Shown here one piece after another: positions 1-29,980 of a DNA stretch of 59,340 bases. The position numbers and the translations under genes are program-made. Source of the stretch: a virus (lineage: Duplodnaviria > Caudoviricetes); IMG/VR virus record IMGVR_UViG_3300021961_000104, positions 1 through 59,340 of that record. One strand, written 5' to 3'. A model generated the notes under the pieces. The model saw nothing but the letters and a program-made list of their open reading frames with translations, searched no databases and was not told where the DNA came from. The stretch's first letter is position 1; every line of letters begins with the position of its first letter.

Positions 1-160
1 ATTACATATTACTGGGTATGGTGTTGTCCCCTCCCCTCTACACGTTTTTTCTCTAGGAAAAATCATTTCACAAAACGGGCCCCACCCTTCTTTTCTAGAC
101 AATTTTCTATACCTCAACGAGACCCCCTCCCCCACCCCATAGATTTATGACTTTGTCTAG

Positions 161-283
161 ACTATACTATACTCTACTATACTCTACTACTCTATACTAT
201 ACTAAACAATACTACACAGTACTATACGATACTATACTATACTCTACTATACTATACTATACTACAAATACTCTACGATACTA
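161..283. repeat. Degenerate 5-bp tandem repeat array (ACTAT/ACTCT) at the left end
   Basis: actatactat actctactat actctactac ... with 5-nt periodicity over about 120 bp; non-coding, G-poor strand. Confidence 0.9.
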
Positions 284-294
284 TTTGGATAATA
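264..294 (+). promoter_or_regulatory. Early promoter-like motif copy 1 (ACAAA-N5-TACGA-N8-GGATAATA)
   Basis: ACAAA TACTC TACGA TACTATTT GGATAATA; same spacing as five other copies. Confidence 0.65.
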
Positions 295-464
295 CTAATG
301 TTACTAATCTAAACTAATACTAATGTTCTTACATGCTATCTTTCTAGTATTTATTCAAGTCACTATACTAATCTATACTCAGAAATAATATCATACCCAG
401 ATATGATAAATTCAAGTATCATCAATACTAATGATATTTTAACTCCAATACTAATACTAAAAAC

Positions 465-512
465 TGTGACAATAGCCTATTACTCTATATTACTTAATAC
501 CCTTATGTCACA
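465..512. promoter_or_regulatory. Palindrome-flanked site A (TGTGACA-N34-TGTCACA), putative operator/origin
   Basis: Terminal 7-bp inverted repeat; interior matches the reverse complement of 8725-8770. Confidence 0.65.
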
Positions 513-539
513 CTTTTCTAAAACTAATTAAAAACTAAC

Positions 540-570
540 ACAAACAAAATACGTTATCGTCCGGATAATA
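540..570 (+). promoter_or_regulatory. Early promoter-like motif copy 2
   Basis: ACAAA CAAAA TACGT TATCGTCC GGATAATA, upstream of ORF 631. Confidence 0.75.
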
Positions 571-630
571 TAATAAACCAATAAGCAAATATAAAATATA
601 AAATAAATAAATTAAATTAAAATTAAAATT

Positions 631-855
631 ATGCAAATTAAATCAAATCGCTTCGTCATTCGCAAATCATTAATTGGCCAAAATGCCATTATCAATGTCA
701 CTTTCAAAAATAATAAAACTTTTGAATATAATCATGATATCGCTTATGAACTCATGTCTTCAAAATTAAATGAAATGCCTTGCTTTTTAAAATATAAAAG
801 CTATACTTCATCAACTTCAATACCAAAAATATTGCAAAACGCTCAAGTTTTATAA
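631..855 (+). CDS. Hypothetical early protein
   Basis: 74-aa ORF after promoter motif with A-rich leader. Confidence 0.75.
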   Translation: MQIKSNRFVIRKSLIGQNAIINVTFKNNKTFEYNHDIAYELMSSKLNEMPCFLKYKSYTSSTSIPKILQNAQVL

Positions 856-886
856 TATTTTAATATTGCTTTTGAAAAATTGCTAT

Positions 887-924
887 AGACTATATTTTTC
901 TTTGTAGAAAGAGATATATAGTCT
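887..924. terminator. Intergenic hairpin, possible terminator or processing site
   Basis: AGACTATAT...ATATAGTCT inverted repeat downstream of ORF 631. Confidence 0.4.
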
Positions 925-1075
925 TAAACCACCAACTACTTTTTATCAATAAAACAATTATACACTTACAAACTTAAAAAATTATGAGAAAATTCTATCA
1001 CTTTGTATTAATAAAATTCGAGCAATTCCAAGAATTTATGGGAAAAGCACCTAGTGAAACGACTTGGTTTTAATT

Positions 1076-1106
1076 ACAAACTAAAAACGATGCACTTTGG
1101 ATAATA
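1076..1106 (+). promoter_or_regulatory. Early promoter-like motif copy 3
   Basis: ACAAA CTAAA AACGA TGCACTTT GGATAATA. Confidence 0.7.
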
Positions 1107-1443
1107 TAATAAATGCAAAATTATACCTATGATTAATAAAATATTCGAACTTCAAACTTCATTTCAAATAATTTATTCGCACAAATATAAATTATATGAC
1201 TTCACTATTATTGACTTGGAAAGTAAAAAAGTTTTACACCATTATCATTATCCAAATTTAAAAATTATAAATAAATTAATTCAAGAATATAAATAAACAT
1301 TATGAAAAAAGTAACAATTACACTACGATCTTCACAATCCGTTAAAGAAATAAACAAAATAATGGAAGAAATGCTATGGGATAGTGAATTCAGCTATGAG
1401 TTTGAAGACGCGCTTTGGGTGATATCGAAAGATTAATTCAATC

Positions 1444-1474
1444 ACAAACCAAATACGATTATCTTTGGATAATA
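1444..1474 (+). promoter_or_regulatory. Early promoter-like motif copy 4
   Basis: ACAAA CCAAA TACGA TTATCTTT GGATAATA. Confidence 0.75.
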
Positions 1475-1716
1475 TAATAAACAATTAACCAAATATTATA
1501 AAATGGAATTATTATTTAACCCTTCTGACATTATTTCACATGAAAAATTAAAAACTTGGAGTAAAAAAGCTTTAACAGAATATATATTATATTGCACCTA
1601 TATTAAATTTCCTGAAGATAGTTATGAAGAAGATGAACTTCCAATGAATAAATTAATTGCTAAAATATAATTAAAACTTTCCATGCCTGGGATTAGAAAT
1701 ACGGGTGATGCCAAAT

Positions 1717-1757
1717 AGAAGTAATGGTTAATGCGAGTTCGATTCTCGCGACTTCAA
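1717..1757 (+). ncRNA. tRNA minihelix-like element (partial acceptor stem + T arm)
   Basis: GCGAG-TTCGATT-CTCGC T arm; GAAGT pairs with ACTTC; ends ACTAA like the two tmRNA-like RNAs. Confidence 0.5.
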
Positions 1758-1785
1758 CTAAATTAATAAATTAAAAAATAAAATT

Positions 1786-1905
1786 ATGGCAAATATGAGT
1801 ACAGACATCATGAAAATCTCGTTAAAATTATTCAATAAATTTTGGCATGAGTTAAATTCACAACAAAAAGATACAGTTTTAGAAGCGTATTACGATTGGT
1901 GTTAA
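1786..1905 (+). CDS. Small hypothetical protein (39 aa, MANMSTD...)
   Basis: Read manually; first 15 nt identical to start of ORF 2852. Confidence 0.55.
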   Translation: MANMSTDIMKISLKLFNKFWHELNSQQKDTVLEAYYDWC

Positions 1906-1909
1906 TATT

Positions 1910-2125
1910 ATGAAAATATATCAAGTAACAAATTTGTTTTTTCCAAACAAAAAAACATATCGCTGTGATATTGACGGTGATTCTATAGTTGGTGATTATG
2001 CATCAGTATCTGAATGGCGTAATGATAGACTTGAGAATAGTGATTATTACAAAGAATTAAAAGAATTAAACACTAAAGCTACTATTGAATTTTTGTCAAA
2101 AGACAAGGGTAACAAAGGTGATTAA
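1910..2125 (+). CDS. Hypothetical protein
   Basis: ORF track, tightly packed operon. Confidence 0.7.
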   Translation: MKIYQVTNLFFPNKKTYRCDIDGDSIVGDYASVSEWRNDRLENSDYYKELKELNTKATIEFLSKDKGNKGD

Positions 2126-2142
2126 TAAATAATGTAAAAATT

Positions 2143-2460
2143 ATGAAAATAAAAGTGAAAAATCAATTAAATTCTTTTGTTAATATTGATGAAGATGTAA
2201 ACGTTATTTGCAAAGGATGTTTTGGAGGCGATCAAATTAACCAACATACGAAATTTGGTGGTGGTCAATTTAATATGGGCGCAGAATTTAACGGTGGTCA
2301 ATTTAACCAAAAAACAAAATTCCTCGGAAGTCAATATAATTGTGATGCAACATTTAACGGAAGAATGTATTTTACTAACAACACAGTTTGGAAAGAAGGG
2401 ATTTGGAAGCAGAATGATGATGGCACTTTTACCGAATGCAAAATAATACCTAAAAACTAA
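2143..2460 (+). CDS. Protein with 11-aa FxGxQxN tandem repeats (beta-solenoid-like)
   Basis: FGGDQINQHTK/FGGGQFNMGAE/FNGGQFNQKTK/FLGSQYNCDAT. Confidence 0.7.
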   Translation: MKIKVKNQLNSFVNIDEDVNVICKGCFGGDQINQHTKFGGGQFNMGAEFNGGQFNQKTKFLGSQYNCDATFNGRMYFTNNTVWKEGIWKQNDDGTFTECKIIPKN

Positions 2461-2610
2461 AACAATGAAAATAACAGTAAAACACTACGGCGAAAAAGTA
2501 ACAGTCTCAACAAAACGAAATGATCTTTCTCTTGATGAATTTATGGATTGTGTAAAGACTATTGCTACAGCAATATATAACGAACAATTAGTAGAAAATT
2601 ATTGGAAATA

Positions 2611-2823
2611 ATGAAAACACCGATGCAAGAGTTGATTGAGCAACTCAATAGGGTAAAGCCCACAGAATTTTGTTCTATTGAAACAATTAAAGGATGGGCA
2701 GAACAAATGCTTGAGAAAGAGAAAAAGGTGGTGTGTGAGTTTGCATACAATTGCAGGAATATAATGGCAGCAGATGAATTTGCTATTAAACATTGGTACG
2801 ACAAAACTTTTAACACTAAATAG
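2611..2823 (+). CDS. Hypothetical protein (start moved to ATG, MKTPMQELIE)
   Basis: ORF track 2602 start is TTG; in-frame ATG at 2611. Confidence 0.7.
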   Translation: MKTPMQELIEQLNRVKPTEFCSIETIKGWAEQMLEKEKKVVCEFAYNCRNIMAADEFAIKHWYDKTFNTK

Positions 2824-2851
2824 AAATAAAAAACATTTAAAACAAAATACT

Positions 2852-3049
2852 ATGGCAAATATGAGTTATTGCAGAATGCGAAATACTGCAAATGATTTAC
2901 AAGATTGTATAAATGCAATTGAAGAAGGAGAATATACTGATGGAATAAGTAGAGAAGAAAGACGAGGTTTAAACGAAATACTTGAATTAGCTCAACACTT
3001 AATTGATAATCTTCAAGACGAAATTGGAGAAATGTCAATAGCATATTAA
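2852..3049 (+). CDS. Hypothetical acidic protein (MANMSYCR...)
   Basis: In-frame ATG at 2852 after A-rich leader, no overlap with upstream gene. Confidence 0.75.
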   Translation: MANMSYCRMRNTANDLQDCINAIEEGEYTDGISREERRGLNEILELAQHLIDNLQDEIGEMSIAY

Positions 3050-3051
3050 AA

Positions 3052-3501
3052 ATGAAGAAGATAATTTATATAGACATGGACGGCGTTTTAGTCGATTTAG
3101 ATTCAGAAATAAAAAAAACTGAAACTAAAATAAACGGCAAAATGAAGTTTTGTGGTGTTGGTTTTACTAATTTATTCAAAAATCCACAGCCAATAAGTGG
3201 TGCGATTGAAGCTTTTGAAATACTTAGAAAATCACCTAAATACGATGTCTATATATTATCTTCAGCTCCATGGCAAAATCCTGCTACTTGGACATACAAA
3301 AGACTATGGGTAGAAAAATATTTAGGCAAATCTGCTTTCAAAAGACTAATATTATCACATCACAAAAATTTATGTGCCGGTGATTACTTAATTGATGACA
3401 GATTAGCGAACGGTTCTGATAAATTCAATGGTGAATTAATACAATTTGGAACAAAAAACTTTGAGAATTGGAGTGTAATATTGAAATATCTTCAACCTTA
3501 A
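3052..3501 (+). CDS. HAD-family 5'(3')-deoxyribonucleotidase (NT5C-like)
   Basis: IYIDMDGVL motif I, LSS motif II, K..W, LIDD motif IV. Confidence 0.9.
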   Translation: MKKIIYIDMDGVLVDLDSEIKKTETKINGKMKFCGVGFTNLFKNPQPISGAIEAFEILRKSPKYDVYILSSAPWQNPATWTYKRLWVEKYLGKSAFKRLILSHHKNLCAGDYLIDDRLANGSDKFNGELIQFGTKNFENWSVILKYLQP

Positions 3502-3502
3502 T

Positions 3503-3533
3503 ACAAATAAAATACGATTATCTATGGATAATA
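3503..3533 (+). promoter_or_regulatory. Early promoter-like motif copy 5
   Basis: ACAAATAAAATACGATTATCTATGGATAATA, identical to copy 6. Confidence 0.8.
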
Positions 3534-3555
3534 TATTTATAAACAAACAATAACT

Positions 3556-3738
3556 ATGCAAATGAAAAAAATTAAATTTTTAACCGGAAAACGTATATCT
3601 CTTGACGGAGTTATATATAAGCCTTATTTATTAAGCGAATTACCAAATAGCTTCGGCGTGATTTGGGATGAGAATCGAGAAGATTTTGGAATTTCACAAT
3701 GGTTTAATTACAAAGGATTGACTTATGTCCGTAGTTAA
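3556..3738 (+). CDS. Hypothetical protein
   Basis: ORF directly after promoter motif. Confidence 0.7.
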   Translation: MQMKKIKFLTGKRISLDGVIYKPYLLSELPNSFGVIWDENREDFGISQWFNYKGLTYVRS

Positions 3739-3976
3739 TATGAAAGAATTATGCCTCTATGTAGAACAGGCGAGAAAAAATCGTGCAGCGGAGCATAGAC
3801 GCAAGCACTCACATGAAAAACTGTGCGGTGGACTTACAGACTCTGAATATAACAAGATGGTAATCAGACAGAAATCTAGCTTTCCCAAAGCTAAAAAGTT
3901 CACCCATAGTAAAATGTGGCAAGATACACACAAGAAATTTGATGTAAAACAGTTAAATATTATAAAAAAATCATGA
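3725..3976 (+). CDS. Hypothetical basic protein
   Basis: ORF track, short overlap with upstream gene. Confidence 0.7.
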   Translation: MSVVNMKELCLYVEQARKNRAAEHRRKHSHEKLCGGLTDSEYNKMVIRQKSSFPKAKKFTHSKMWQDTHKKFDVKQLNIIKKS

Positions 3977-4102
3977 AAAAAGATATTTTAAATTACATAG
4001 ATTGGAATAATATTTGTAAGGATTATGATTTAGAAAGTGGTGATTTATCTTTAGATCATACTTTAACGTTAGAATATATATTAGAATATTTTATAAAAGC
4101 AA

Positions 4103-4133
4103 ACAAATAAAATACGATTATCTATGGATAATA
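4103..4133 (+). promoter_or_regulatory. Early promoter-like motif copy 6
   Basis: 31-bp exact repeat of 3503-3533. Confidence 0.8.
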
Positions 4134-4160
4134 TATATGTAACAAATAAAAACAGAAATT

Positions 4161-4409
4161 ATGAGTAAGTTTTTTAATAAACAACTAATCGATGAATTAG
4201 TAGAAATAGCTCAACATGAAGGTTGGGAAATAATGGTAAATGATGTTTATAATCTGATTAATCTTGAATATAGTAACGAAAATAAAGAAGATAGATTTAC
4301 ATTGATGAAAACATTAATAAACGAAGTTGGTTTTGTTATTAAACAAAAGTTAATAATTAAAAATAAACATGAAAACATTAGGTTATTTTATAGTAGAAAA
4401 CGAAATTGA
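4161..4409 (+). CDS. Hypothetical protein
   Basis: ORF after promoter motif. Confidence 0.65.
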   Translation: MSKFFNKQLIDELVEIAQHEGWEIMVNDVYNLINLEYSNENKEDRFTLMKTLINEVGFVIKQKLIIKNKHENIRLFYSRKRN

Positions 4410-4535
4410 AAGAAATGTATTAGAAGTAGCGCTCGATCACATGGAAGAGCATCTAATAAATATTAGCGATGAGGTAGATGTTAAAAATAGGCTCAAAGCT
4501 TGTAGAAATTTAATGAAAAAAATAATATATTAATT

Positions 4536-4733
4536 ATGAATATTAAATATTGTAAATGCGGAAAAACAGTGCATCCAATACGATTAAAATTAGGTTATAA
4601 TACTTGTGTAGATCATTCTACAGTGCAAACTTACTCTTATGTTCCAATTATCGAGCATAAAACAGGTAATACAATTCAAATCGTTAGCCAAGAAGTTAGT
4701 GCTTCAGTGCACAGAGCTTGGCGACGTAAATAA
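4536..4733 (+). CDS. Small zinc-finger protein (DksA/TraR C4-finger-like)
   Basis: CKCGKTVHPIRL...TCVDH resembles CxxCGxxIxxxRL...CxxC. Confidence 0.55.
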   Translation: MNIKYCKCGKTVHPIRLKLGYNTCVDHSTVQTYSYVPIIEHKTGNTIQIVSQEVSASVHRAWRRK

Positions 4734-4739
4734 AATCAC

Positions 4740-4816
4740 GGGGGTGATTGGTTTTGACATAGCGTAAAGCCTACAAGGAAACGTTATGGAAGAGGGTTCG
4801 AATCCCTCCACCTCCA
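4740..4816 (+). ncRNA. Mini tmRNA-like RNA: tRNA-like domain only, Ala identity
   Basis: GGGGGTG/CACCTCC acceptor with G3:U70, A discriminator, stemless D loop ATTGGTTTTGAC, 8-bp P2-like helix, T arm GAGGG-TTCGAAT-CCCTC. Confidence 0.8.
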
Positions 4817-4842
4817 CTAAAACAAATAAATTATACATTATT

Positions 4843-5356: not shown

Positions 5357-5358
5357 AT

Positions 5359-8724: not shown

Positions 8725-8770
8725 TGTGACAAAAGCCCTTAAGTATAAATAGTAATAGGCTAATGTCACA
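8725..8770. promoter_or_regulatory. Palindrome-flanked site B (TGTGACA-N32-TGTCACA), overlapping start codon of HTH gene
   Basis: Reverse complement aligns with 465-512; right arm overlaps ATG at 8763. Confidence 0.65.
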
Positions 8771-9383
8771 TGAAAGAAACATAGATTATTTACACAAAAG
8801 ACGTATTGTCTATCGTAGAAATCCTATAAACGATAAACCAACGCAAAGGTTTGAGTGGGGTGATTTCTATGAAGACGGTACGTATGAGTGTTACACATTG
8901 TTTCGTAGTAAAGCTAAAATCACAACATATAAATCTTTAAAATGGCATTTGTTAGTGTTATGGTATCTTAATCCACAATTAGATCAAGATGATTTTGATG
9001 ATATAGCTAGATTTTTATGCCATAAAGAAAATGGATTTATAACTTTTAATGTAATACCAGGTGTATTAAACAATATAATACATGAGGTTAGCATGTTTGA
9101 CTTAGATGAACCTCCAAAAAACAAATTAAGAAAAATTATATTTAATGATTTTTGCGGTTTATCTTTAGAAGAAAAAATGAAGATAGTTGGTCAAATGATA
9201 GGTAAATCAAAAAAAGTAAATCAAGACGATATTTACGAATGTATGATAGATCTTAATGACACAGGTCAAAAGATAACAATATCTCGTATCGCTAATTTAT
9301 TAAATTGTTCACCTAGAACAGTATACAGAACAATGGGTAATGAACTTAAGAAAGAAAAAGAATTGTTAAACAAACAAATATGA
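8763..9383 (+). CDS. DNA-binding protein with C-terminal HTH (possible replication initiator/regulator)
   Basis: ITISRIANLLNCSPRTVYR HTH. Confidence 0.75.
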   Translation: MSHERNIDYLHKRRIVYRRNPINDKPTQRFEWGDFYEDGTYECYTLFRSKAKITTYKSLKWHLLVLWYLNPQLDQDDFDDIARFLCHKENGFITFNVIPGVLNNIIHEVSMFDLDEPPKNKLRKIIFNDFCGLSLEEKMKIVGQMIGKSKKVNQDDIYECMIDLNDTGQKITISRIANLLNCSPRTVYRTMGNELKKEKELLNKQI

Positions 9384-9476: not shown

Positions 9477-10232
9477 ATGAAGAAATATAACGTACAAAAT
9501 TACATTAGATACAAAGAAGATGTTAAAAAATCTATGCCTAATGACAGAAAATATAATGAGTACAATAGAGACGAACTTATTATAAAGTTTTTACCACTTG
9601 TAGAAAATTTAGCCAGAAAATTCTCTACATCTCAACAAGCTTCAGGTGTTTTAACTATAAATGATTTAATTCAAATTGGATCTGAATCTTTGATAAAAGC
9701 GGTTGATAGAATTGAATGGGAAACATTAAACAAATCAGAAGACATCGAAAAAACTTTAAAATCATTTTTGTCGAAAAGAATAAAAGGCGGTATTAGAAGA
9801 CAAATAGATATGGCTAGAGGTAACATGAGAATACCAGAGCATAAACTAAATGAAATACGTAGTAACCCTAAAGACAAACAAATGGTTGAAATGTTTTTTA
9901 ATAGTATATTCTTAAGTATAGATGCTCAAACTTCTAACGACGACGAGGAAAATATGATATATCAAATTGCAGATAAATCTGAACCATATAACATACAATT
10001 TCTTAACATTTATTTAAAAAGTTTAATGGAAAAACATTTAAACAAAAATGAATATGAAGTGCTTAGACTTTCTTACGGTCTTGACTGTGATCCGCATTCT
10101 GCAATTCAAATAGCAGAAAAATTAGGTATCAATGGTACAAGTTCTTACGTTAGAGTATCTGAGCTTAAAAAACAGGCTGTAACCAAATTAATAGAAAGCG
10201 TAGATCACTCACAAGTGCTTGATTTTCTTTAA
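9477..10232 (+). CDS. RNA polymerase sigma70-family factor
   Basis: Region 2 LPLVENLARKF...DLIQIG...LIKAVDR, MRIP, region 4 VLRLSYGL...IAEKLG. Confidence 0.9.
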   Translation: MKKYNVQNYIRYKEDVKKSMPNDRKYNEYNRDELIIKFLPLVENLARKFSTSQQASGVLTINDLIQIGSESLIKAVDRIEWETLNKSEDIEKTLKSFLSKRIKGGIRRQIDMARGNMRIPEHKLNEIRSNPKDKQMVEMFFNSIFLSIDAQTSNDDEENMIYQIADKSEPYNIQFLNIYLKSLMEKHLNKNEYEVLRLSYGLDCDPHSAIQIAEKLGINGTSSYVRVSELKKQAVTKLIESVDHSQVLDFL

Positions 10233-21229: not shown

Positions 21230-24200
21230 TTATTGTTTTTTACTCATTAATTCTAATATCTTATTAACTCTATCTTCTTCATATTTTAAAGCTCTAATTT
21301 CTTTTTTACTTAAACCAAAGTTAGTTAATGTTTTTACTTGATCTGGTTTGTTCTCGGCTTTAATTGAATCAAATTGTTTTTGTAATCTTTGTTCAGCTGT
21401 TAGTTTCTTAGGTTTAACCTCTTCTTTTGGTTTAACTTCTTTTTTAGTAGATTCTACTTCTTCTTTAGTTTCAATTTTTTCTATAGGTTTATTTTTTAAC
21501 TCTATAATTTTATTGACTCTATTTTCTTCGTATTTTAATTCTTTAATTTCAGCTTTAGTTAAACCTAATTCTTCCAACATTTGCTTTTGTTCAGCAGTGT
21601 TAGTTTGGTCCATCATTAATTTAACAGCTTCAGCAGCTTCTTCTTCTGGTGTTAAAGGCTCAACAGCATCAAAACCACCGTAATAAGGTAAACCAACGTC
21701 GTAAGTTGACCAACCTAAAATTAAAGCTATTTTTTGCCATCTTACAGAAAGTTCGCTAAATATACCTCTCATGTTGTTTGTTTTCTTAACAACTCTGTCT
21801 ACTGGCACGTTAGTTAAACCTGTAAATACTTGAGCTACTGCTAAGTAAGCTGGATTATCTAAACTCCAACCTTTTTCTTTCATTTCTTTTTTATTCCAAC
21901 TAAAAGATCTTAAACCTCCATATATTTTACCTACTTTAGATCCTAATGGCGGAGAAAAAGCAAACAAATCCTCAACAGCTTCTTCGTATTCAGGTCTTTT
22001 TTTATCATTTTCTTCCATTAAAGTTAACAAAAAGTTTTTTAAGGAAGATACAGCAGCCCCAGTTATACCAAGTCCTCTAAGTTGAGAATCAAGCATACCA
22101 TTTGCAACTTTAACAGCTTTTTCTTTACGAGTATTTTTTAGCTCTTCTTTGCTATCATCATCGTCATCATCTCCAAAACCAATAGCATCTATAGCTGATT
22201 GAAGTGTATTGAATAATAAGTTTTGAACAATACCATAGTATATTATTTTAGAAACATTAGCTTTAGCATTGCCTCTACCGTTAACAAGATCTTGTATAGC
22301 TCTTTTTTGAATACGAGCATACTGCATTGGTGTATTTGCCCATGCTAATATAACTCTACCAGCTGTTGACGCTTGTTGTTTACTAATTCTAACCGGATTG
22401 CTAGACTGTTGACTTTCTTCTGCTATTGCTCTAAAATCTTCAAAAGCACGTTGTTCAGCTAGTTTAGGATCCATACCTGATTTAACTAAACTTTTTATTC
22501 TATTTCTATAAAATGTAGAACCTCCACTAGCTATAGCAAAACTATCTGCAATTTGAGTCATAACAAATCCTTTGTTAAGGATATAAGAAATAATAGCAGT
22601 CGCTTTATTTTTAGAGTTAGCAGCAGCATCAGCAATTTCAGATTCACTTATGTTTATCTTTAAACCATTTCTACGTTCAACAAGATAATCAGAATTCATT
22701 AATGTAATAAAATCTTTCCAAAATTGTTTTTGATTAGCAAATGCTAAACCTGCTTTAAATATATTATTATCACTCCAGTTTATAAAGTTTACAGATGATA
22801 TAGTTTGTAACAAGGCACTTCTAGTATTCAAAAACATAACAGCACCAACGGAATTGTTAAGCCAATCTAATATACCTTGTGTAGTACTATCACCTCCTTT
22901 GGGTCTATTACTACCAGACTTCATTCTACGGATAGAATCCTCTATAGCTGCTCGCCAATTAGTACCATAAGCAGCTTCCATTTTATTTAAATTTTCTTCT
23001 GAAAATATAATATCAACATTTTCTCTAAACTCTTGTTGGTACTCGGCTCTTTTAACTGTATTTATATCATTAATAATATCAGAACTTATAGTACCGGCTA
23101 ACCAACTATCAGATGGTGAAGGATATGGTTTGTCTTTTTGTATAGTAAAAAGTTGCTCTGCAAATACTTTTAATTTAGGATCACTTTCAACAAATGAAGT
23201 TAAATCTTGAATATCTTTTTTACTTAAACCAGGAATTTCGACACCTTGACTTTGCCATATAAACACTCTTATAGCATGAGAATAATTAAACTTACCTATA
23301 CCAGTTTGTTTGTTAAGTGTTTTTGGTAATGTTTTAAGCTGTGTTTTTAAAGCAATAAAATCGTTCATTGCAGCTATCTTAGCTTGAGTTACAGATATTT
23401 CAGATCTATTGTATGTATCTAAAAGATTTTGTTTTAGGAACGCCATTTGTGCATCACCTTTTTTACCTTTACCTATCATTTCATACAATAAACCAGTAAA
23501 ATCTTCTGCGCCAGCGGGTATAAAGAAATTGTATTTACCTTTTCCAGCGCCAACAGTTCTAGCTTTAGCTGCTGAGTATTTTTTATAAGTTTCAATACCA
23601 GCTGTATCAAAAATCATATCATTAATAACTCTATCAAAATCTTGTCTTTTACTAGCTTTAGCTTGTTGAACTTTAGACTTAACGTCAATTTGACTCAATA
23701 CTTCTTCAACAGCTTTTACATTTCCAGTAACATCATCAGCAAAGTAAAAATCATTATAACCTTCAGAAGCTTTGTCCATAATCCATCTAGCCTTAGCTTC
23801 AGCAGCGCCATCACCAAGTCCAGTTATATTTTTAATAGGTATATTTAAACCTAAACTTTTAAGGAATTGTTGAATTGGTTTAGCGGCGTCAGCTGGTCTT
23901 GCTGTTAAAACAAAAATATCTTTAGTACCTCTTTTGTCAGCTATAATTTTAGCGACTTTAAACAATGGTCCTTCTTTGCCATCTATAACTTTGCTAAATT
24001 CAGAAAAATTCCATTCAGCTCCTTGTGCTTCTAAATCAGTGGCTTGTTCAGCGAAAGTTCCAGCCTCTAGTTTACCTTGAATATTGCTATTAATACCAGC
24101 ATAAACTTTATCTAAAAAATCTTGTGGTAAATCCTCTCCAAAGCCTATTTCTTCTGTATTTATTTCATACAACTTATCGCCAAAATCTTTTCTATAAAGC

Positions 24201-27200
24201 TCGGTACTTTCTTGCACTTGGTTCCAACTTCTTTCGACTATAAAATCTGGTAAAGATCTTTCTACTCTAGCTTTGTTTCTAGCCAATGCCGTTTCTAAAG
24301 ACGTATTAGCAACTACCATATGGACTTCATAACCTGCATCCTGCAACTGCTTAACTTTTTTCATTGTAGCAGGGTAAGAAGCTCCAGTGCCGTCAATCAC
24401 CATACCATCGCCATTAGCAGCGTATTTATCAAATTTAGCAACAGCAGCTTTTCTAGCAGCGGCACCCAATTTAGCTCTAGTAGATATTTGCTCTGTAGTA
24501 TATTCAGCTTCTTTAGCTGGCAGTCCAGCTTCAGCTTTCATAACTTCTAAAGCTATATCTTGATTAACAACTTTATAACCTTGTCTACCTAACTTAAGCC
24601 CTTTTCCAATGTTTGTTTTTCCAGCACCAGGTCCACCAACCATAAATATAGCTTTCTGTCTAACTGATTCAGGAGAAAAACCACCTTCAAAATTAGGCAT
24701 AGTATATATAACTCTACTATTAGTACGAGCTAATGTATCGTCAAAATCAAATACTCTAATTTTCTTAACTGGCGCGTTTAATTTTCTAGCATTATTTAAA
24801 GCTTTATCAGCTTTGCTTAAAGCATCGATACTAGTTTTAACTGTTACAGCTTTATCGTACTTTATAGAGTCAGGGATTAAATCACTATTACGTTTAGAAG
24901 CCATTGCTTTACCTTTAACTAAAGGTAGATAAGCTTTAATTGTTTGACTAGGATTATAATTTAGATCACTAATAGCCTTAATTATTTGTTCGTTTTGATA
25001 AGAAATAGCCTCTAACTTTTGACTTTCGTTATAAGAATTATAAACATCTAGTGGAATACCAGCGTTTACAGTTTCAGCCATAGTTTTGCCAGTGTAAGGA
25101 TTTGTAATAGTATTTAAATCTATACCAGCAGCAGCAAGTCTAACTATTGGATTGTCAAATATAGTGAAACCTTCTGGAAGAGTAGAATCTAACTTAGCCA
25201 TATCTAATAAAAAGTCATCCTTTTTAGATAATTGAGTTTGATAATAGTTATCTCTAATAGCTTGCATTATTGGTTGGGCTTTGTTATTTTTTATTGCCCA
25301 CATAATATAAGCTCCAACTACAGAAGCTGGTGGATTATGTTCTTCTCTATATTTTTCTCCTTTTCTTTGCTCTGGTTTACTACCTTTTCCAGCATATTCC
25401 ATTGTGTTGGATCTGTATAAAAAAGGAGCGGCTATTTTTATTAAACCAGAAGTGGCTTGATAGCTTTGTACAATTATAGTTCCAGCTACATCTAAAGACA
25501 TTCCATTAGCAACAGCGTCAGCAAGTTGATTAACAACATGATCTAACACATCCATGTTTACTTTAGACTGAACCTTTGCTTTATCTGTAAAAGCATTTTT
25601 GATATTTATTTTTATAGGTTTTTTACCTTTATATTCTTTAGTTGATTCTATTAATTTTATATAAACAGGATCTTTTTCACCATAATATAATCTTCCTGGT
25701 TTTGCAACCCAATTAGTTATTTCGCTACCAAGGCTACCTTCAGCAGATTTCTCTAAAAAATATCTACCATCTGTAGTTTTAACATATTTTTCAACACCAA
25801 TAGTGCCTTTTTTTCCTTTTACAAATTTACCATCAACTATTTTACCGTAAAAACTTTGTCTTCCACCACTACCCATCATTCCAGCTCTCAATGTAGCTGT
25901 ATCAAGTCCATATTTTTCGACAGCTTCTTGTATTTGATCTTGAATAGTTTTTCTATTTTGTTCATTTATAGAAGGTGAATTATAACGCAACGACTTAGCT
26001 AAATCGGTTTTAGATCTTAGTATGCTTAAACCTTTTAGTTCTTCTAAATTTTCAGGCGTTATTCTTTTACTAGCCATTGATTTAGATTTTCCAGCAGCTA
26101 TATCTTGTTTAACCTCTAAATTTAAATCAGTTTCAGATCTTACTATTTCATTAGTTACTAATCTACCATATAGATTTGCAATACCTTTTAACGCTTGAGC
26201 CTCAGATGATCTAGCGCTAAAGTCTTCAGCTTTTTTACCTTCAACTATACCAAACGTTTTTAGAAAATCAGCTTTTGTAATTCCTTTATTTAAAGCAAAC
26301 GGAGATAAACCAGCTCCTTTAGTAATTCTAGGTTTTTTAGTATAAAAAGCATTTAACAAACCCTTTGGCACTCCAGTAGAGGTACCTAAGAGCTTATCTG
26401 TTGCAGCTTCTATCACTGCGCCTTCAGGTAATATCTTTAATAATTTATCTGCGTTCTTATTGACAAATCTTTGTATAGCATTAGCATCACCTTTAGATAG
26501 GTTAGCAGTTGGATCTGTTAGTTTTTTAACTGGTATTCCAATTTCTTGAGCTATAATTTCAGGAGCTAGATCGCCTAACTTCTTAAACGTCATTTGTTCA
26601 GGATCTATACCTTTTATTTTAGAAGCAATATTTTCTTTTATTTTAGCAACAGCATCGTTAGATATTAAAGAGCTAGGTTTTATTAAAGTTGTAACTGGTT
26701 TTGTAGATACTTCAACATCTTGCTCTGTAGCTGTTTGGCGTTGCATTTTTTCAGTAACACCTTCTTGTGACTCAGATTGAATGATCTCATTATATCTAGG
26801 GTCAGCTTCATAAAACTCTTGCAACCTAGCGTCAAATAAGCTTCTGCCAGAAGCAGACTTTGAGTTTAAGTAACCCATGACACTATCGTTTCGATCTGGT
26901 GTCCATTTATCTATTAAGCTAACTAATCCTCTTTTTTCATCTAAAGCAAAAGTTCTAGCTATATCATCAATAACGTCTTCGCTTAGGTTTATATTACGCA
27001 TACGTCTTTTAGCCTCATCAACTAAAGAATACGCAGCCATAATAGTAGCATCTTTCTTTTTATTAGAATCAAGAAGATCTGGCTTCATGGCCTCAACTTC
27101 TTGATATACTCTTTTACTCTCTTTAGCAGCAGTATCAGTGACCTCGTCTTGCATCAAACTCTCAAAACTTTTAATAGCTTTAGCGCCTTTGGTTCTTTGA

Positions 27201-29980
27201 TCTATTTTAACCTCTCCTTCTACCAAAGCACCTTTAGCTCCTTCTTTAGCTACAGCTAATTGAACTTCAGACAAGCCTTTACCAGATTGAATTGTTTTGT
27301 TGTAATCTTTTAAGAAGTTAAAAATATCTTTACCTGTATCAAACGTTATGTTTAAAGGTTGTTTACCAGATCTAAATAAATTATTAAATAAATCTATTAA
27401 ACTTTCAAAAAACCCTTTTGTTTTTTCATTATAAACAATATCTCCATTAGACATGGCTTCGCTAACCAATGGTATAACTTCTTCCCACGTAGCAGCTGCA
27501 GAGTACTTAGGATCTTCTAAGTATTGTCTAAATCTATTTTCAAGATTACTATTTGTTATTGATATGTCTTTATTATTTACTATTTCAGAAAGTAAATTTT
27601 TTCCAAATATAATTGATAACTCTGGATTATCTTTAAAGGTTTGTTGGAAAAATGGATGTAATATTTCGTGTTGATCTGTTGTGAATTTAAAATCTTCTGC
27701 AGCGGCTCTATCGTTTATTAATATTATTTTTTTGTCATTTAATATAATTGATTGACCATATCCAGTTGATTCTTGAACTTCTCCGCCTTGATCTTTTATT
27801 TCTTGTACTCTTTTTTCGTAACCTTCTTGTGTATCAAAAGTTTCAAAATCAGATTCTAATTGTTCTGATATTATTTTAGCAGCTTCTCTGGCTTTTGATT
27901 GTTTTATTTTAATTAAATTTTCTTTTATTAAATTTTCATCTATGCTATTTTTAATAGCAAAAATATCATTAGACAACTTTTTATTCTTATTTACAACAGC
28001 TCCTTTTGCTGAACCATATTGTCTGCTATCAATTTCGCCATTTATATAAGCAACATTTAAATCTTTTAATATTTTATTATTTTTTTCTTTTTCAGAAACT
28101 AAATTTAAAACTTCTGCTTTTTGATTTGAATCTAAAAGTTTTGCTGAAATATAATTATTTTCTAAAAATTCTTTTAATGAATTTTCAGTTGTATTTATTT
28201 CTATATCAATAGCGTCTCTAAAAGCTTTATTTTTATTTAAAGCTCTAGCTTTTTGTAAGCCTCCAATAGTTTCAATGTGCTGATTGACAAATGCTAAAGA
28301 TTCTTTATCACTTCTCAAAGCTTTAGCTATTGTAGATGGCGCCGAAACTACCGTAGAACCAACAAGACCTTGTAAATAACTTTCAAGCCCATCTTCTGAA
28401 GCCATAGCTGATATGCCATCAAGTACGGAATTATTAAGGTTTTTACCGTCAGCTAAACTTTTATTTATTTCTTCAGTTCCTAATTGAAAAACCTCTGTTA
28501 AACCTTCTTTATTTTGAGTTAAAAGTAATGAAGCAAAAGGAGAATATTTACCTGTATACCCAGCAATTTGTTTTGAAATACCTTTAAGTCCAGCGTATTC
28601 AAGACTCATAGCCAAAACTCCTAATGTAAGTGGAGTGTTGATTTCTGTTTCATTATTTCTAACTAACTCTTCTATTGGGTTCTCTGAATCTTTATATTTA
28701 GAATTTGCTTTTGAAACATTGTAGTCTACATACATAGGAGCAACTATTTGAGGAAACAAAGAACCTCCTCTAGTTAAGGCAGCTGGTGCTGCTGTTTCAA
28801 TAAGACTTCCAACCGCATTAAATACTCCACCTATTATTTCAGGTATATCTCCTTTTTTAAAACCCGATACAATTCCACCAACGTCTGTTCTTGTTTCGCT
28901 TAATTTTTTTACTTTACCAAATTGCTCGATCATATAATCTTCAGCAAATTTACCAACTTCATTATCTGTACCTGAATATACTGCTTTTACGTTTGAACCA
29001 ATTTGTCTTTTTAGTCTACTTAATTCTTTCCAACGCTCAGGGTTTTTAGAAAATAATACCTCGCTGTTATCGTTTGGGTCAATAAAAGCTATAGCTGTTT
29101 CTGGCATTTTTCCGGTTAAAAAGTCGGCAGCATCTTGGCCGGCAGTATTTTTTATAAAATCTATTCCAGCAAGTTTAGCAGACTCCCAAGAAGTTTCTAG
29201 TCCTATAGGTATATTTTCAACAGTACCAATAAACCTTCCGGTAATATCCATAATTGGTTCCATTATTATATCAGCTATTGTTGGCTTTATTTCCGGTATA
29301 TCTTTTTTAGATAATTCAGAAATATAATCAGAAACCTTGTCTAATTCTTTATATGATACTATAGCTTTGTTTGTTTGTAAATTATCTCCTCCAAAAGCTT
29401 TTCTTATATTATTTATTTTTTGTAAATTTAAAAACTCATTTTCAGGTTTTAAAACTTCTTGTTGTGTTTTATTTAAAAAGTCATTAAAACTTTCCCCTTC
29501 TTTTTTTTCTTTTTGATATTTACCAAAAACATTATAAAGATCATTATCTATAGTTTCATCTGGAGCTAATTCCAATTGATAATAAGCTATAGTTCTTTCT
29601 GGAGTACCTGATTTATATTTTTTTAATATAGAATTTATTTGATCTTGTTTGTATTTTTTCTCTTCTTTTTCAAACTCCTTTATAGACTTTCCAAACAAGT
29701 CTTTATGCATTTTATCAAAATCACCTTCTTGATATTTCAAATCTCCATTTCCATATACTACATCTGAAAATGATGTCTCGGACGCATCCGGTTGTTTGGG
29801 TGATGCAGTTGCATCCGTTTTGTCTACAACACCCTTCGTCTTTGCTTCGTCGATAACGTCATCTACAACTTTATCTTCAACAGGTGGATTATTTTTTTTC
29901 CACTCTTGAGCTTTGTCAAATATTTCTTTATCAGATAATCCTTGATCTTGTAGAGAAGCTATATATTCTAATAATGTCAT
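21230..29980 (-). CDS. Giant (2916 aa) virion/ejection polyvalent protein: zincin peptidase, sigma-like module, HAD phosphatase with inserted P-loop kinase
   Basis: HEILH; GLVSLIDKWTPDR; DFDDT/LTAR/FADD; GGPGAGKT; lies after tail and internal-protein genes. Confidence 0.8.
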   Translation of the reverse strand: MTLLEYIASLQDQGLSDKEIFDKAQEWKKNNPPVEDKVVDDVIDEAKTKGVVDKTDATASPKQPDASETSFSDVVYGNGDLKYQEGDFDKMHKDLFGKSIKEFEKEEKKYKQDQINSILKKYKSGTPERTIAYYQLELAPDETIDNDLYNVFGKYQKEKKEGESFNDFLNKTQQEVLKPENEFLNLQKINNIRKAFGGDNLQTNKAIVSYKELDKVSDYISELSKKDIPEIKPTIADIIMEPIMDITGRFIGTVENIPIGLETSWESAKLAGIDFIKNTAGQDAADFLTGKMPETAIAFIDPNDNSEVLFSKNPERWKELSRLKRQIGSNVKAVYSGTDNEVGKFAEDYMIEQFGKVKKLSETRTDVGGIVSGFKKGDIPEIIGGVFNAVGSLIETAAPAALTRGGSLFPQIVAPMYVDYNVSKANSKYKDSENPIEELVRNNETEINTPLTLGVLAMSLEYAGLKGISKQIAGYTGKYSPFASLLLTQNKEGLTEVFQLGTEEINKSLADGKNLNNSVLDGISAMASEDGLESYLQGLVGSTVVSAPSTIAKALRSDKESLAFVNQHIETIGGLQKARALNKNKAFRDAIDIEINTTENSLKEFLENNYISAKLLDSNQKAEVLNLVSEKEKNNKILKDLNVAYINGEIDSRQYGSAKGAVVNKNKKLSNDIFAIKNSIDENLIKENLIKIKQSKAREAAKIISEQLESDFETFDTQEGYEKRVQEIKDQGGEVQESTGYGQSIILNDKKIILINDRAAAEDFKFTTDQHEILHPFFQQTFKDNPELSIIFGKNLLSEIVNNKDISITNSNLENRFRQYLEDPKYSAAATWEEVIPLVSEAMSNGDIVYNEKTKGFFESLIDLFNNLFRSGKQPLNITFDTGKDIFNFLKDYNKTIQSGKGLSEVQLAVAKEGAKGALVEGEVKIDQRTKGAKAIKSFESLMQDEVTDTAAKESKRVYQEVEAMKPDLLDSNKKKDATIMAAYSLVDEAKRRMRNINLSEDVIDDIARTFALDEKRGLVSLIDKWTPDRNDSVMGYLNSKSASGRSLFDARLQEFYEADPRYNEIIQSESQEGVTEKMQRQTATEQDVEVSTKPVTTLIKPSSLISNDAVAKIKENIASKIKGIDPEQMTFKKLGDLAPEIIAQEIGIPVKKLTDPTANLSKGDANAIQRFVNKNADKLLKILPEGAVIEAATDKLLGTSTGVPKGLLNAFYTKKPRITKGAGLSPFALNKGITKADFLKTFGIVEGKKAEDFSARSSEAQALKGIANLYGRLVTNEIVRSETDLNLEVKQDIAAGKSKSMASKRITPENLEELKGLSILRSKTDLAKSLRYNSPSINEQNRKTIQDQIQEAVEKYGLDTATLRAGMMGSGGRQSFYGKIVDGKFVKGKKGTIGVEKYVKTTDGRYFLEKSAEGSLGSEITNWVAKPGRLYYGEKDPVYIKLIESTKEYKGKKPIKINIKNAFTDKAKVQSKVNMDVLDHVVNQLADAVANGMSLDVAGTIIVQSYQATSGLIKIAAPFLYRSNTMEYAGKGSKPEQRKGEKYREEHNPPASVVGAYIMWAIKNNKAQPIMQAIRDNYYQTQLSKKDDFLLDMAKLDSTLPEGFTIFDNPIVRLAAAGIDLNTITNPYTGKTMAETVNAGIPLDVYNSYNESQKLEAISYQNEQIIKAISDLNYNPSQTIKAYLPLVKGKAMASKRNSDLIPDSIKYDKAVTVKTSIDALSKADKALNNARKLNAPVKKIRVFDFDDTLARTNSRVIYTMPNFEGGFSPESVRQKAIFMVGGPGAGKTNIGKGLKLGRQGYKVVNQDIALEVMKAEAGLPAKEAEYTTEQISTRAKLGAAARKAAVAKFDKYAANGDGMVIDGTGASYPATMKKVKQLQDAGYEVHMVVANTSLETALARNKARVERSLPDFIVERSWNQVQESTELYRKDFGDKLYEINTEEIGFGEDLPQDFLDKVYAGINSNIQGKLEAGTFAEQATDLEAQGAEWNFSEFSKVIDGKEGPLFKVAKIIADKRGTKDIFVLTARPADAAKPIQQFLKSLGLNIPIKNITGLGDGAAEAKARWIMDKASEGYNDFYFADDVTGNVKAVEEVLSQIDVKSKVQQAKASKRQDFDRVINDMIFDTAGIETYKKYSAAKARTVGAGKGKYNFFIPAGAEDFTGLLYEMIGKGKKGDAQMAFLKQNLLDTYNRSEISVTQAKIAAMNDFIALKTQLKTLPKTLNKQTGIGKFNYSHAIRVFIWQSQGVEIPGLSKKDIQDLTSFVESDPKLKVFAEQLFTIQKDKPYPSPSDSWLAGTISSDIINDINTVKRAEYQQEFRENVDIIFSEENLNKMEAAYGTNWRAAIEDSIRRMKSGSNRPKGGDSTTQGILDWLNNSVGAVMFLNTRSALLQTISSVNFINWSDNNIFKAGLAFANQKQFWKDFITLMNSDYLVERRNGLKINISESEIADAAANSKNKATAIISYILNKGFVMTQIADSFAIASGGSTFYRNRIKSLVKSGMDPKLAEQRAFEDFRAIAEESQQSSNPVRISKQQASTAGRVILAWANTPMQYARIQKRAIQDLVNGRGNAKANVSKIIYYGIVQNLLFNTLQSAIDAIGFGDDDDDDSKEELKNTRKEKAVKVANGMLDSQLRGLGITGAAVSSLKNFLLTLMEENDKKRPEYEEAVEDLFAFSPPLGSKVGKIYGGLRSFSWNKKEMKEKGWSLDNPAYLAVAQVFTGLTNVPVDRVVKKTNNMRGIFSELSVRWQKIALILGWSTYDVGLPYYGGFDAVEPLTPEEEAAEAVKLMMDQTNTAEQKQMLEELGLTKAEIKELKYEENRVNKIIELKNKPIEKIETKEEVESTKKEVKPKEEVKPKKLTAEQRLQKQFDSIKAENKPDQVKTLTNFGLSKKEIRALKYEEDRVNKILELMSKKQ

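Follow-up and report, generated by a model that had tools for sequence, protein, structure and literature searches.

What reads the repeated, promoter-like motif at the injection-proximal end of the genome of this uncultured marine phage? A pattern scan for the tripartite motif beginning ACAAA-N5-TACGA-N8 across the window (the whole stretch of DNA analysed, 59,340 nt) returned six copies within the first 4.2 kb, all on the + strand as the first-pass annotation had reported, compared with a mean of 0.10 matches, a maximum of 2 and never 6 in 100 dinucleotide-preserving shuffles. The copies at 264, 1444, 3503 and 4103 matched exactly, and those at 540 (TACGT) and 1076 (AACGA) carried one mismatch each. 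Their confinement to this region, likewise claimed at first pass, was borne out by a weight matrix derived from these copies, which detected no seventh copy above 12 bits on either strand of the window. When scored with a matrix of 290 sites from the motif family described below, five copies reached 36.0–39.6 bits and copy 264 only 16.3 bits; the runners-up in the window scored 4.9 and 4.6 bits. The copies and the genes behind them are:

264..294, + strand: motif copy 1; exact match, weakest copy, within a CTATA repeat, without a convincing ORF downstream
540..570, + strand: motif copy 2; 60 nt before ATG 631, TACGT, 5-bp dyad, 36.5 bits
1076..1106, + strand: motif copy 3; 22 nt before ATG 1129, AACGA, without dyad, 36.0 bits
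1444..1474, + strand: motif copy 4; 28 nt before ATG 1503, dyad, 39.6 bits
3503..3533, + strand: motif copy 5; 22 nt before ATG 3556, dyad, 37.4 bits
4103..4133, + strand: motif copy 6; 27 nt before ATG 4161, dyad, overlapping the stop codon of the preceding ORF
631..4409, + strand: block of small early-type ORFs; the units behind copies 2–6 (ORF layout; Pfam scan of 55 ORFs)

The placement at gene boundaries thus held for five copies, with 22–60 nt between motif and ATG, and failed for copy 1, which overlaps a CTATA tandem repeat (157–284). The sole ORF of the early block with a recognizable family in the Pfam scan encodes an NT5C-like nucleotidase (3052–3501). A related strain, represented by one contig from metatranscriptome run X11, lacked exactly positions 4098–4140 (43 nt, spanning copy 6); both metatranscriptome runs consist of assembled contigs of related strains, which may contain DNA and show no 5' ends.

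Further downstream, two genes on the same strand bear on how the motif may be used:

8763..9383, + strand: conserved 206-aa protein with a C-terminal HTH (weak Pfam HTH matches), just upstream of the sigma gene
9477..10232, + strand: sigma-70-family sigma factor, 251 aa, FliA/group-3-like

The sigma factor matched phrog_351 (E 5.6e-18) and scored 51.5 bits with TIGR02937 (cut-off 42.9 bits), and its Pfam r2 and r4 matches lay below their cut-offs. A profile built from it matched 57 solved sigma chains, the best being FliA (1rp3, E 1.4e-11), with SigA (E 3.6e-10) trailing by roughly one order of magnitude only. Judged by these profile matches, the product is a bona fide sigma-70-family protein. 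Its gene stands on its own within the replication module, 5.3 kb downstream of the last of the six copies, and neither the host-type scan nor the family matrix scan of the window revealed a promoter of its own. No other sigma factor and no RNA polymerase was detected in any ORF of the window by PHROG and Pfam profile searches.

A motif search in relatives, which had been proposed as a check at first pass, was performed on both strands of 80 related, sigma-bearing IMG/VR loci and yielded 359 sites, every one on the + (coding) strand and none on the − strand. Each of the 43 loci in which 9 kb or more precede the sigma gene held 2–12 copies. The window and 13 relatives together contributed 66 sites, again all on the + strand. 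The invariant core reads ACAAAC (positions 1–6)-N18-GATAAT(A) (positions 25–30/31), the spacing being constant across sets of 61 and 290 unique sites. Positions G25-A26-T27-A28-A29-T30-A31 were invariant or nearly so (A26 in 290/290, T30 in 287/290), and C2 was found in 280/290 unique sites. TACGA, which lies in the spacer, was less conserved than the two blocks, and a T(G) directly preceded the −10-like block, the extended −10 positions reading n-T-G (T in 195/290 and G in 132/290 sites). Among the 66 sites, the next ATG-ORF began a median 22.5 nt after the motif end (at most 40 nt in 47), and the core lay outside any ORF in 56. The motif is common to a large uncultured podophage clade, whose hosts are probably Flavobacteriia.

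The layout agrees with that of sigma-70-family promoters, in which a spacer of constant length, ~16–19 bp (here 18 bp), lies between two conserved blocks and the −10 block carries A at −11 (A26) and T at −7 (T30). Because of this two-block geometry, the fixed strand and the position just before start codons, the promoter part of the first-pass annotation holds: the sites are predicted sigma-70-family-type promoters, at which transcription would start.

The ATTATC-N4-GATAAT hairpin had been reported for three copies and is present in them (1444, 3503 and 4103), with a 5-bp version, TTATC-N5-GATAA, in copy 540; across the family, however, it is a minority feature. Of 62 unique sites, 13 had a stem of 5 bp or more and 6 had one of 6 bp or more, compared with 7.0 ± 2.3 sites with at least 5 bp after shuffling of the spacers. 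The dyad is an add-on rather than part of the core, possibly an operator for a dimeric regulator. The conserved HTH protein encoded nearby may be a regulator; in its AF2 model (pLDDT 86), only residues 149–206 matched generic HTH folds (Z 5–6.4), and it was conserved in 13 relatives. Together with the number of stems and the location of the sites, always within future leaders or gene starts, this protein would suit a motif that is not a promoter but a protein operator, a leader RNA element or a replication/packaging repeat. We consider this very improbable, given that 49 of the 62 sites have no stem of at least 5 bp, that the invariant letters form two blocks at promoter spacing rather than a symmetric site, and that the sites are dispersed over several kb at gene starts, unlike clustered iterons. 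In addition, some relatives have an ATG only 3–7 nt after the motif, so that a separate promoter would scarcely fit upstream of an RNA element.

If the sites are promoters, the host enzyme is an obvious candidate reader. The motif had been described as unlike the Bacteroidota primary-sigma type, and this was confirmed: the conserved core has neither the TAnnTTTG −7 box nor the −33 TTG, with the nuance that the spacer of copy 1444 also contains TATCTTTG, a host-type −7 box. The sense-strand intergenic DNA of the window held no TTG-N17–21-TAnnTTTG, and E. coli-type promoters were not in excess in the window (56 found, 67.7 expected). The two-block motif ACAAA-N19-GATAATA was not enriched in 80 Flavobacteriaceae genomes (184 occurrences versus 202 for the reversed control) and thus does not represent a widespread type of host promoter. 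It nevertheless deserves weighing that the host holoenzyme alone could read the motif, using its primary sigma outside the usual consensus or an alternative sigma of the host, with the phage sigma serving the late minus-strand operon, as in the classical cascade of host-read early and phage-sigma-read late genes. This arrangement has the simplest logic, poses no start-up problem and accounts for the missing repeated late motif: the late genes form a single minus-strand operon from ~59 kb to 20 kb (~40 kb), in which no repeated late motif was seen. GATAAT matches TATAAT at 5 of 6 positions, TTTG immediately preceded GATAAT in 46 of 327 sites (15.3 expected), and a full TAnnTTTG was embedded at positions 17–24 in 8 of 327 (2.25 expected), copy 1444 included. 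The early promoters of T4 also have an idiosyncratic extended consensus. Moreover, the T7 A1 promoter was transcribed in vitro by Cellulophaga RNA polymerase (10.1101/2020.03.07.982082). In the same work, middle promoters of Cellulophaga phage phi14:2 were shown by the authors to be host-read (10.1101/2020.03.07.982082), and the g070, g075, g108 and g110 promoters of this phage read TTG-N17-TAnnTTTG; they have both boxes that are absent from the motif core. The lack of excess in the Flavobacteriaceae genomes also speaks against the host enzyme acting alone, as does the sister phage MW202828.1, whose early region has a completely different repeated motif. On balance, reading by the host enzyme alone, although the main rival explanation, appears rather unlikely.

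The phage sigma, in turn, accompanied the motif throughout. Sigma and motif occurred together in all 13 motif-bearing loci of sufficient length and in 43 of 43 loci, the sigma being present in 80 further IMG/VR loci, and both were missing from the sister phages MW202828.1, elemoE and phi38:1; this co-occurrence is a single clade-level pattern rather than a set of independent events. No homologue of the phage sigma was found at E ≤ 0.001 in 40 Flavobacteriaceae genomes, a count from which genome G001, which carries relatives of this phage, was left out. That the phage supplies the specificity factor, as proposed, is plausible given that a phage-encoded sigma goes with the motif in every case; what did not stand is its assignment to a domain of a virion protein, since the sigma is a separate gene.

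We therefore favour, with a probability of roughly 0.45, a reading in which the motif copies are promoters used by the host core polymerase together with the phage FliA-like sigma, perhaps started by weak host recognition. The −35-like ACAAAC and the −10-like GATAAT(A), 18 bp apart, would serve as sigma-70-family-type promoters, and the six sites would divide the 4.2 kb at the injection-proximal end into short transcription units, each with a very short leader. The reader would be host core RNA polymerase carrying the product of 9477–10232 and not the host primary sigma. With all copies placed upstream of the sigma gene, and no host-type promoter for that gene, some initial, weak transcription would be required. 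The host holoenzyme could supply it from GATAAT or from a TAnnTTTG embedded here and there, copy 1444 being an example, after which read-through would let the phage sigma boost its own expression. This extra start-up step, with a sigma gene placed downstream and lacking an independent promoter, counts against reading by the phage sigma. Assigning the phage sigma to the early motif also gives no account of what reads the 40-kb late operon.

A further candidate reader is a factor that enters with the DNA, as the first-pass annotation had supposed. The proposed carrier is a single large protein:

21230..29980, − strand: giant virion-module protein, 2916 aa; Zeta/AAA_33 kinase (1770–1930), HAD-like phosphatase, all-helical C-terminus

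Its gene lies after the tail genes, where crAss-like phages encode their virion polymerase, and the structural module is crAss-related (muzzle protein PF25731 and PF25729). Cargo proteins encoded at this position are reported to be ejected in crAss-like and N4-like phages. Together with the lack of host-type promoters in the sense-strand intergenic DNA, these features would fit a virion-delivered reader, be it a portion of the giant protein that resembles a polymerase or a sigma, or sigma molecules packaged in the virion. Searches for such a reader were negative: PHROG, Pfam and NCBIfam profiles identified no sigma or polymerase domain in the 2916-aa protein, in 13 of its homologues or in the other late ORFs, and phmmer of the giant protein against PDB sequences gave no match. 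A DxDxD regular expression, which recovers DFDID in phi14:2 gp66, gave, apart from a run of D residues, no hit in the window protein, its MW202828.1 homologue or phi38:1 gp100/gp101, and tblastn of gp66 against the window returned nothing below E 5. The conserved C-terminal 987 aa (1930–2916) adopt a fold of a HAD-like domain plus helices without a polymerase match; this fold check covered 1930–2916, and residues 1–1770 were analysed by sequence methods only. The N-terminal ~700 aa show little conservation across relatives that share the motif, which would not be expected of a reader of an invariant motif, and the sigma gene sits in the replication module, not among virion genes. Delivery of the reader by the virion is accordingly improbable. 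We assign similarly low odds to the specific variant in which the phage begins its programme with a sigma that it carries in or produces within seconds: a packaged FliA-like sigma, or another motif-specific factor, is ejected with the DNA and redirects the host core polymerase before any phage gene is expressed, the sigma then maintaining itself by read-through from the motif promoters. We know of no description of a virion-delivered sigma factor, and literature searches aimed at other questions showed no case. The first-pass claims of a virion-delivered sigma-like domain and of a factor needed before any phage gene is expressed thus gained no positive evidence, the only sigma being encoded downstream of all copies.

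Among known systems, Bacteroidota primary-sigma promoters share with the motif the two blocks, the short leaders before genes and, presumably, the host phylum, whereas neither TTG (−33) nor TAnnTTTG (−7), as found in phi14:2, matches the core in the window. N4-like and crAss-like virion-polymerase systems are comparable in having few promoters clustered at the first-entering genome end and in being podophages with a giant protein of the ejected type encoded after the tail genes and, as here, a crAss-like muzzle protein. They differ in their virion polymerase (phi14:2 gp66), none being detectable here by sequence, with the fold check covering 1930–2916. N4-like virion-polymerase promoters are each known to form a short DNA hairpin, whereas stems of at least 5 bp are limited to the 13 sites mentioned above. 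For phi14:2, the authors noted no common motif upstream of the early gp66 transcripts (10.1101/2020.03.07.982082).

Promoters of sigma-28 (FliA), the best solved relative of the phage sigma, come closer in layout. In a sigma-28 open complex, the elements are TCTAAAG (−36 to −30) and GCCGATAA (−15 to −8) (PMC12784957). With G25 set to −12, GATAA falls at −12 to −8, where it is identical to the sigma-28 element, and ACAAACa at −36 to −30, in the same register as the upstream block; however, ACAAACa matches TCTAAAG at only 3 of 7 positions, and the extended −10 reads tTG here and GCC there. The likeness may reflect only the generic layout of the sigma-70 family.

In T4 and phiEco32 (gp36), phage sigma factors serve middle or late genes and not the leftmost genes, which counts against the favoured reading. 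The same is described for the SPO1 cascade (gp28, gp33/34), whose sigmas act on middle and late genes (PMC13401047). The earliest genes of SPO1 and phiEco32 have host-type promoters, whereas here the non-host motif is confined to the front of the injection-proximal genes; the host phylum differs, and the sigma gene lies downstream of the motif. The likeness to SPO1 and phiEco32 lies in a phage without a polymerase of its own, a sigma-70-family factor, a non-host two-block consensus and use of the host core enzyme, the last of these being predicted here.

The six motif copies were recovered on the plus strand at 264, 540, 1076, 1444, 3503 and 4103, as claimed in the first-pass annotation; the tripartite pattern proposed there was exact in four copies and showed one mismatch in the other two, against a mean of 0.10 pattern matches in shuffled sequences. 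Matrix scans of both strands gave no further copy in the window. A matrix derived from 290 related sites gave five copies 36-40 bits and copy 264 only 16.3 bits. The latter is located within a (CTATA)n repeat, with no credible ORF downstream, and the other five end 22-60 nt upstream of an ATG. That these sites act as promoters is well supported and, in our judgement, highly probable. Exactly 43 nt holding copy 4103 (4098-4140) are skipped in a contig of a related strain from the metatranscriptome run X11, and the motif thus behaves as a discrete insertion/deletion module. A second joint in the contig data replaces 4136-4531.

Searching IMG/VR with the exact relaxed pattern yielded 33 loci with one match each and unrelated flanks, that is, chance matches, so relatives were found through proteins instead. 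The motif search in relatives suggested in the first-pass annotation detected copies in 13 of the 15 loci found through the ligase, the remaining two containing almost no upstream DNA. After one refinement round, the window and these 13 loci provided 66 sites (61 unique), all on the coding strand. The phage sigma factor was used as a second query (at least 8000 clusters in the search) and identified at least 418 IMG/VR contigs encoding it, 80 of which were kept; these carry 359 sites on the plus strand, the minus strand having none. Where 9 kb or more lies upstream of the sigma gene (43 loci), every locus contains 2-12 copies, most often 7. Copies sit 1-10 kb upstream of the sigma gene, and 15 sites lie ~2 kb downstream of its start. 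Because the ligase and sigma sets share contigs, they cannot be counted as independent. One long-read contig, G001:C7, which was binned with a Flavobacteriaceae genome, comprises ~1.8 genome units of a relative, each with a five-copy cluster. The clade has many members and is frequent in marine and estuarine data.

The family consensus reads tTACAAAc-aAAatACGA-N7-tgGATAATAtaa. GATAATA shows little or no variation, C2 occurs in 280 of 290 unique sites, and the TACGA block is weaker and largely missing from one subclade. The median distance to the next ATG-initiated ORF is 22.5 nt (at most 40 nt in 47 of 66 sites). Since the ATG follows only 3-7 nt past the motif in some relatives, GATAAT is favoured as the putative -10 block over TATAAT five bases further on, and the leaders would be very short or absent. 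Iteron, origin and RNA-element readings were rejected, given the spacing and position of the sites, and we regard non-promoter readings as highly improbable.

By terminase and portal, the closest named phages are MW202828.1 (63% and 50% identity), Flavobacterium Elemovirus phages and Cellulophaga phi38:1/phi18:3-like phages; given these neighbours, the host is probably a member of the Flavobacteriia. Megablast of positions 1-20000 against GenBank phages returned no match, and no cultured clade member was found in the phage collection, its nearest records (Elemovirus, Callevirus and MW202828.1) being without motif and sigma. In Cellulophaga phi38:1, Elemovirus elemoE and MW202828.1, only scattered chance matches to the motif were detected.

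The proposal that the motif is not of the host primary-sigma type was borne out, as its core is devoid of TTG/TAnnTTTG. TTG-N17-21-TAnnTTTG was not found in sense-strand intergenic regions of the window, and TAnnTTTG occurs only five times on the plus strand of the left 20 kb, once within copy 1444. As a positive comparison, TTGACT-N17-TATATTTG, TTGCAT-N17-TACTTTTG and similar sequences were found upstream of g070, g075, g108 and g110 of Cellulophaga phage phi14:2, where the accessible text of the mapping study places host-polymerase promoters (10.1101/2020.03.07.982082); the same text describes the early transcripts that the virion polymerase of this phage produces as sharing no motif. In 80 Flavobacteriaceae genomes, the two-block core gave 184 matches versus 202 for a reversed control, so the motif does not represent a widespread class of host promoter; a small regulon in the host is possible. 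TTTG directly precedes GATAAT in 46 of 327 sites (15.3 expected), with the full TAnnTTTG embedded in 8 (2.25 expected), and these minority sites could permit some host-driven initiation. A scan for E. coli-type promoters found 56 versus 67.7 expected, none with both hexamers on a sense-strand motif copy. Terminator-like sites numbered only 2, both on the minus strand. Two metatranscriptome runs contain related strains only as contigs, which show no 5' ends, with DNA carry-over possible, and the high depth at 1-400 reflects a simple repeat.

The ATTATC-N4-GATAAT dyad noted earlier in three copies was confirmed in 1444, 3503 and 4103. Stems of at least 6 bp were found in 6 of 62 unique sites (2.3 in spacer shuffles) and stems of at least 5 bp in 13 (7.0 ± 2.3 in shuffles, with 15 of 1000 shuffles reaching 13); because sites related by descent were counted repeatedly, these figures are not probabilities. 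The dyad is an optional feature rather than part of the core, and a hairpin promoter of the N4 type is not supported, given the small share of sites with a stem of at least 5 bp.

The early and control regions contain the following further elements:

4740-4819, plus strand: match to the tmRNA tRNA-like domain, ~80 nt (Rfam tmRNA model, 65 bits versus a gathering threshold of 47)
6650-6733, plus strand: match to the tmRNA tRNA-like domain, ~80 nt (Rfam tmRNA model, 25.7 bits, below gathering)
466-511: inverted element of ~45 bp, GTGACAwwAGCC-N~20-GGCTAwTGTCAC, conserved in relatives and usually followed by a T-run

Both tmRNA matches consist of the tRNA-like domain alone, the 5' and 3' ends being directly connected without the mRNA-like part; they may be phage-encoded mimics of this domain. 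ARAGORN detected no tRNA or tmRNA in the window. A third tRNA-like T-arm was seen, by eye only, at ~1740-1760 (element perhaps ~1690-1765). In related loci (L041, L044, L045, L049, L051, L053, L054, L107), the inverted element sits in the interval from the first late gene to the first motif copy, within the divergent control region that separates the late from the early operon; in the window it is found after copy 264 and before copy 540, not upstream of the first copy, and in G001:C7 it is flipped. It could serve as a regulator site or terminator, or as an end-related signal. C-rich blocks at 20-146 (cccctcccc, gggccccaccc, ccccctcccccacccc) are conspicuous in a genome of 30% GC and are kept in the control region of relatives. 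Several contigs, among them the window and the related loci L042 and L047, start 230-260 bp upstream of the first motif copy, which may indicate either a physical end of the genome or a break in the assembly there. The corresponding region of the sister phage MW202828.1 (43.7-55.2 kb; L007/L191), an early/middle region, instead carries 14 perfect copies of the 16-bp palindrome GTGTCGTTAACGACAC, many of them 15-35 nt before ATGs, so the early-region motif is lineage-specific within the phage group.

With hexamers ACAAAC and GATAAT and an 18-bp spacer, the motif has the layout of sigma-70-family promoters. The only transcription proteins encoded in the window are a 251-aa sigma factor (9477-10232, plus strand) and, just upstream, a 206-aa protein with a C-terminal HTH (8763-9383, plus strand); family scans of the window ORFs gave no match to an RNA polymerase. 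The sigma factor passes the curated cut-off of TIGR02937, with SigB/F/G, SigK and FliA types as next-best models, and a profile of ten relatives best matched FliA (1rp3, E 1.4e-11), followed by primary sigmas from 3.6e-10. In 40 Flavobacteriaceae genomes screened in addition to G001, which carries relatives of the phage, no homologue was found at E ≤ 0.001. Every motif-bearing ligase locus of sufficient reach (13 of 13) encodes both sigma and HTH protein; elemoE, phi38:1 and the entire MW202828.1 have neither these two nor the motif, and for elemoE, 10 kb outside the compared sequence are annotated as a single CDS. For the HTH protein, Foldseek returned nothing at E ≤ 0.001, VIA-align matched only the last 58 residues to generic HTH folds (Z ≤ 6.4), and a profile search against PDB sequences produced no meaningful match.

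The tentative reader of the motif is the phage sigma acting on the host core (probability about 0.45), a reading favoured by the non-host consensus, by the strict co-occurrence and by the resemblance to FliA of both the sigma and the -10 core. As the sigma gene lies downstream of every copy without a promoter of its own, a start-up step must be assumed, which would be a first weak host-driven round or a carried-in sigma. No such assumption is needed in the classical scheme, with the motif read by host holoenzyme and the phage sigma devoted to the single late operon, but the missing TAnnTTTG then needs explaining, and we consider this less likely. Inspecting relatives by eye for a late promoter yielded no more than a tentative CTGTAAGTATATA, seen in three loci.

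The window covers an entire IMG/VR record (59,340 bp), which is rated linear and 92% complete; ~8% of the genome is missing past the right end, at which a tail-fibre ORF is cut off. Plus-strand genes at ~0.6-19.7 kb encode small ORFs, ligase, DNA-binding protein, sigma, Erf, exonuclease, primase-helicase, ThyX, MazG and ribonucleotide reductase; the minus strand, from 59 to 20 kb, encodes tail fibres, GroEL/GroES, terminase, portal, capsid-module proteins, a crAss-type muzzle, a 2916-aa protein and an amidase. None of the ORFs of 150 aa or more matched a DNA polymerase family, despite the primase-helicase, ligase, Erf and exonuclease. Near-identical ribonucleotide reductase genes (80-93% identity) occur on short contigs (L060-L104) binned as Aliivibrio, Nitrosomonadales, Chloroflexota, Thiothrix and others, most likely mis-binned phage contigs from the same clade. 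Individual features of the late region are:

33204-37439, minus strand: crAss-type muzzle protein (PF25731, PF25729; phrog_14478), apparently split, first ORF
31792-33174, minus strand: same muzzle protein, adjoining second ORF
53882-55435, minus strand: GroEL (family match)
53638-53898, minus strand: Cpn10 (family match)
47965-48570, minus strand: second GroES-like protein (family match)
51588-51938, minus strand: 116-aa ORF with no family match, containing DLDGD and DLDYD (two DLDxD motifs; six-frame polymerase-motif regex)

The two muzzle ORFs correspond to the beginning (first ORF) and the end (second ORF) of the family model, and the GroEL/Cpn10/GroES-like set is also found in Elemovirus and Callevirus relatives. 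The DLDxD motifs are probably metal-binding and unrelated to polymerases.

Delivery of a sigma-like domain with the virion, as proposed in the first-pass annotation, was unsupported when the 2916-aa protein (21230-29980, minus strand) was examined as its carrier. No sigma or polymerase family was detected in this protein, even at E ≤ 10, or in the other late ORFs, and searches of NCBIfam and PDB sequences with the giant protein gave nothing. BLASTP of the phage sigma against it showed no similarity (best E 0.68); it has no DxDxD signature beyond a run of D residues, the same regex finding DFDID in the phi14:2 virion polymerase gp66, and tblastn of gp66 against the window returned nothing. Its sole family domain is a Zeta/AAA_33 kinase (residues 1770-1930), also matching phrog_505 (polynucleotide kinase), and 13 homologues (2611-4134 aa) contain only the kinase (5 of 13) and DUF5763 (2 of 13). 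Conservation among relatives is confined to ~700-2764 (best at 1970-2764), and the N-terminal third is variable. A fold of the last 987 residues, predicted from 37 sequences (pLDDT 73), comprises a HAD-like domain and then helices; Foldseek with these 987 residues found nothing at E ≤ 0.001, the matches being local ones to HAD phosphatases and none to a polymerase. In the ESM Atlas, both parts of the protein matched unnamed clusters only, with Zeta/AAA_33 and LPD39 clusters at 0.82-0.84 as a lead only. The predicted architecture combines a kinase, a HAD-like phosphatase and a long helical C-terminus. It is similar to that of large multi-domain proteins ejected by other phages, and the pairing of kinase and phosphatase is reminiscent of a polynucleotide kinase-phosphatase. 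That a virion-delivered factor reads the motif is improbable.

No description of the promoters or sigma factors of these phages was found in the literature searched; in their accessible text, PMC5335546 does not contain 'promoter', and PMC8776804 contains none of 'promoter', 'sigma' and 'RNA polymerase'. If the phage sigma is indeed paired with the motif, the two would represent a compact orthogonal sigma/promoter pair for Bacteroidota, in which expression tools are scarce, and a simple sequence tag by which the clade's early region and genome end could be recognised, with a phage sigma apparently controlling the first rather than the late genes. If the host alone reads the motif, flavobacterial polymerase would accept promoters far from TTG/TAnnTTTG. 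In the solved sigma-28 open complex, as given in the accessible text, GCCGATAA occupies -15 to -8 and TCTAAAG -36 to -30 (PMC12784957). With G25 set to -12, the phage GATAA falls at -12 to -8 and ACAAACa at -36 to -30, so that the register is the same and the -10 core identical, whereas the -35 block and the extended -10 differ. Phage-specific promoters of the sigma-70 type paired with a phage sigma are an already-known kind of system; new are the motif consensus itself and the arrangement, in phages whose hosts are probably Bacteroidota, of non-host promoters confined to the front of the first genes and a sigma gene located downstream of them.
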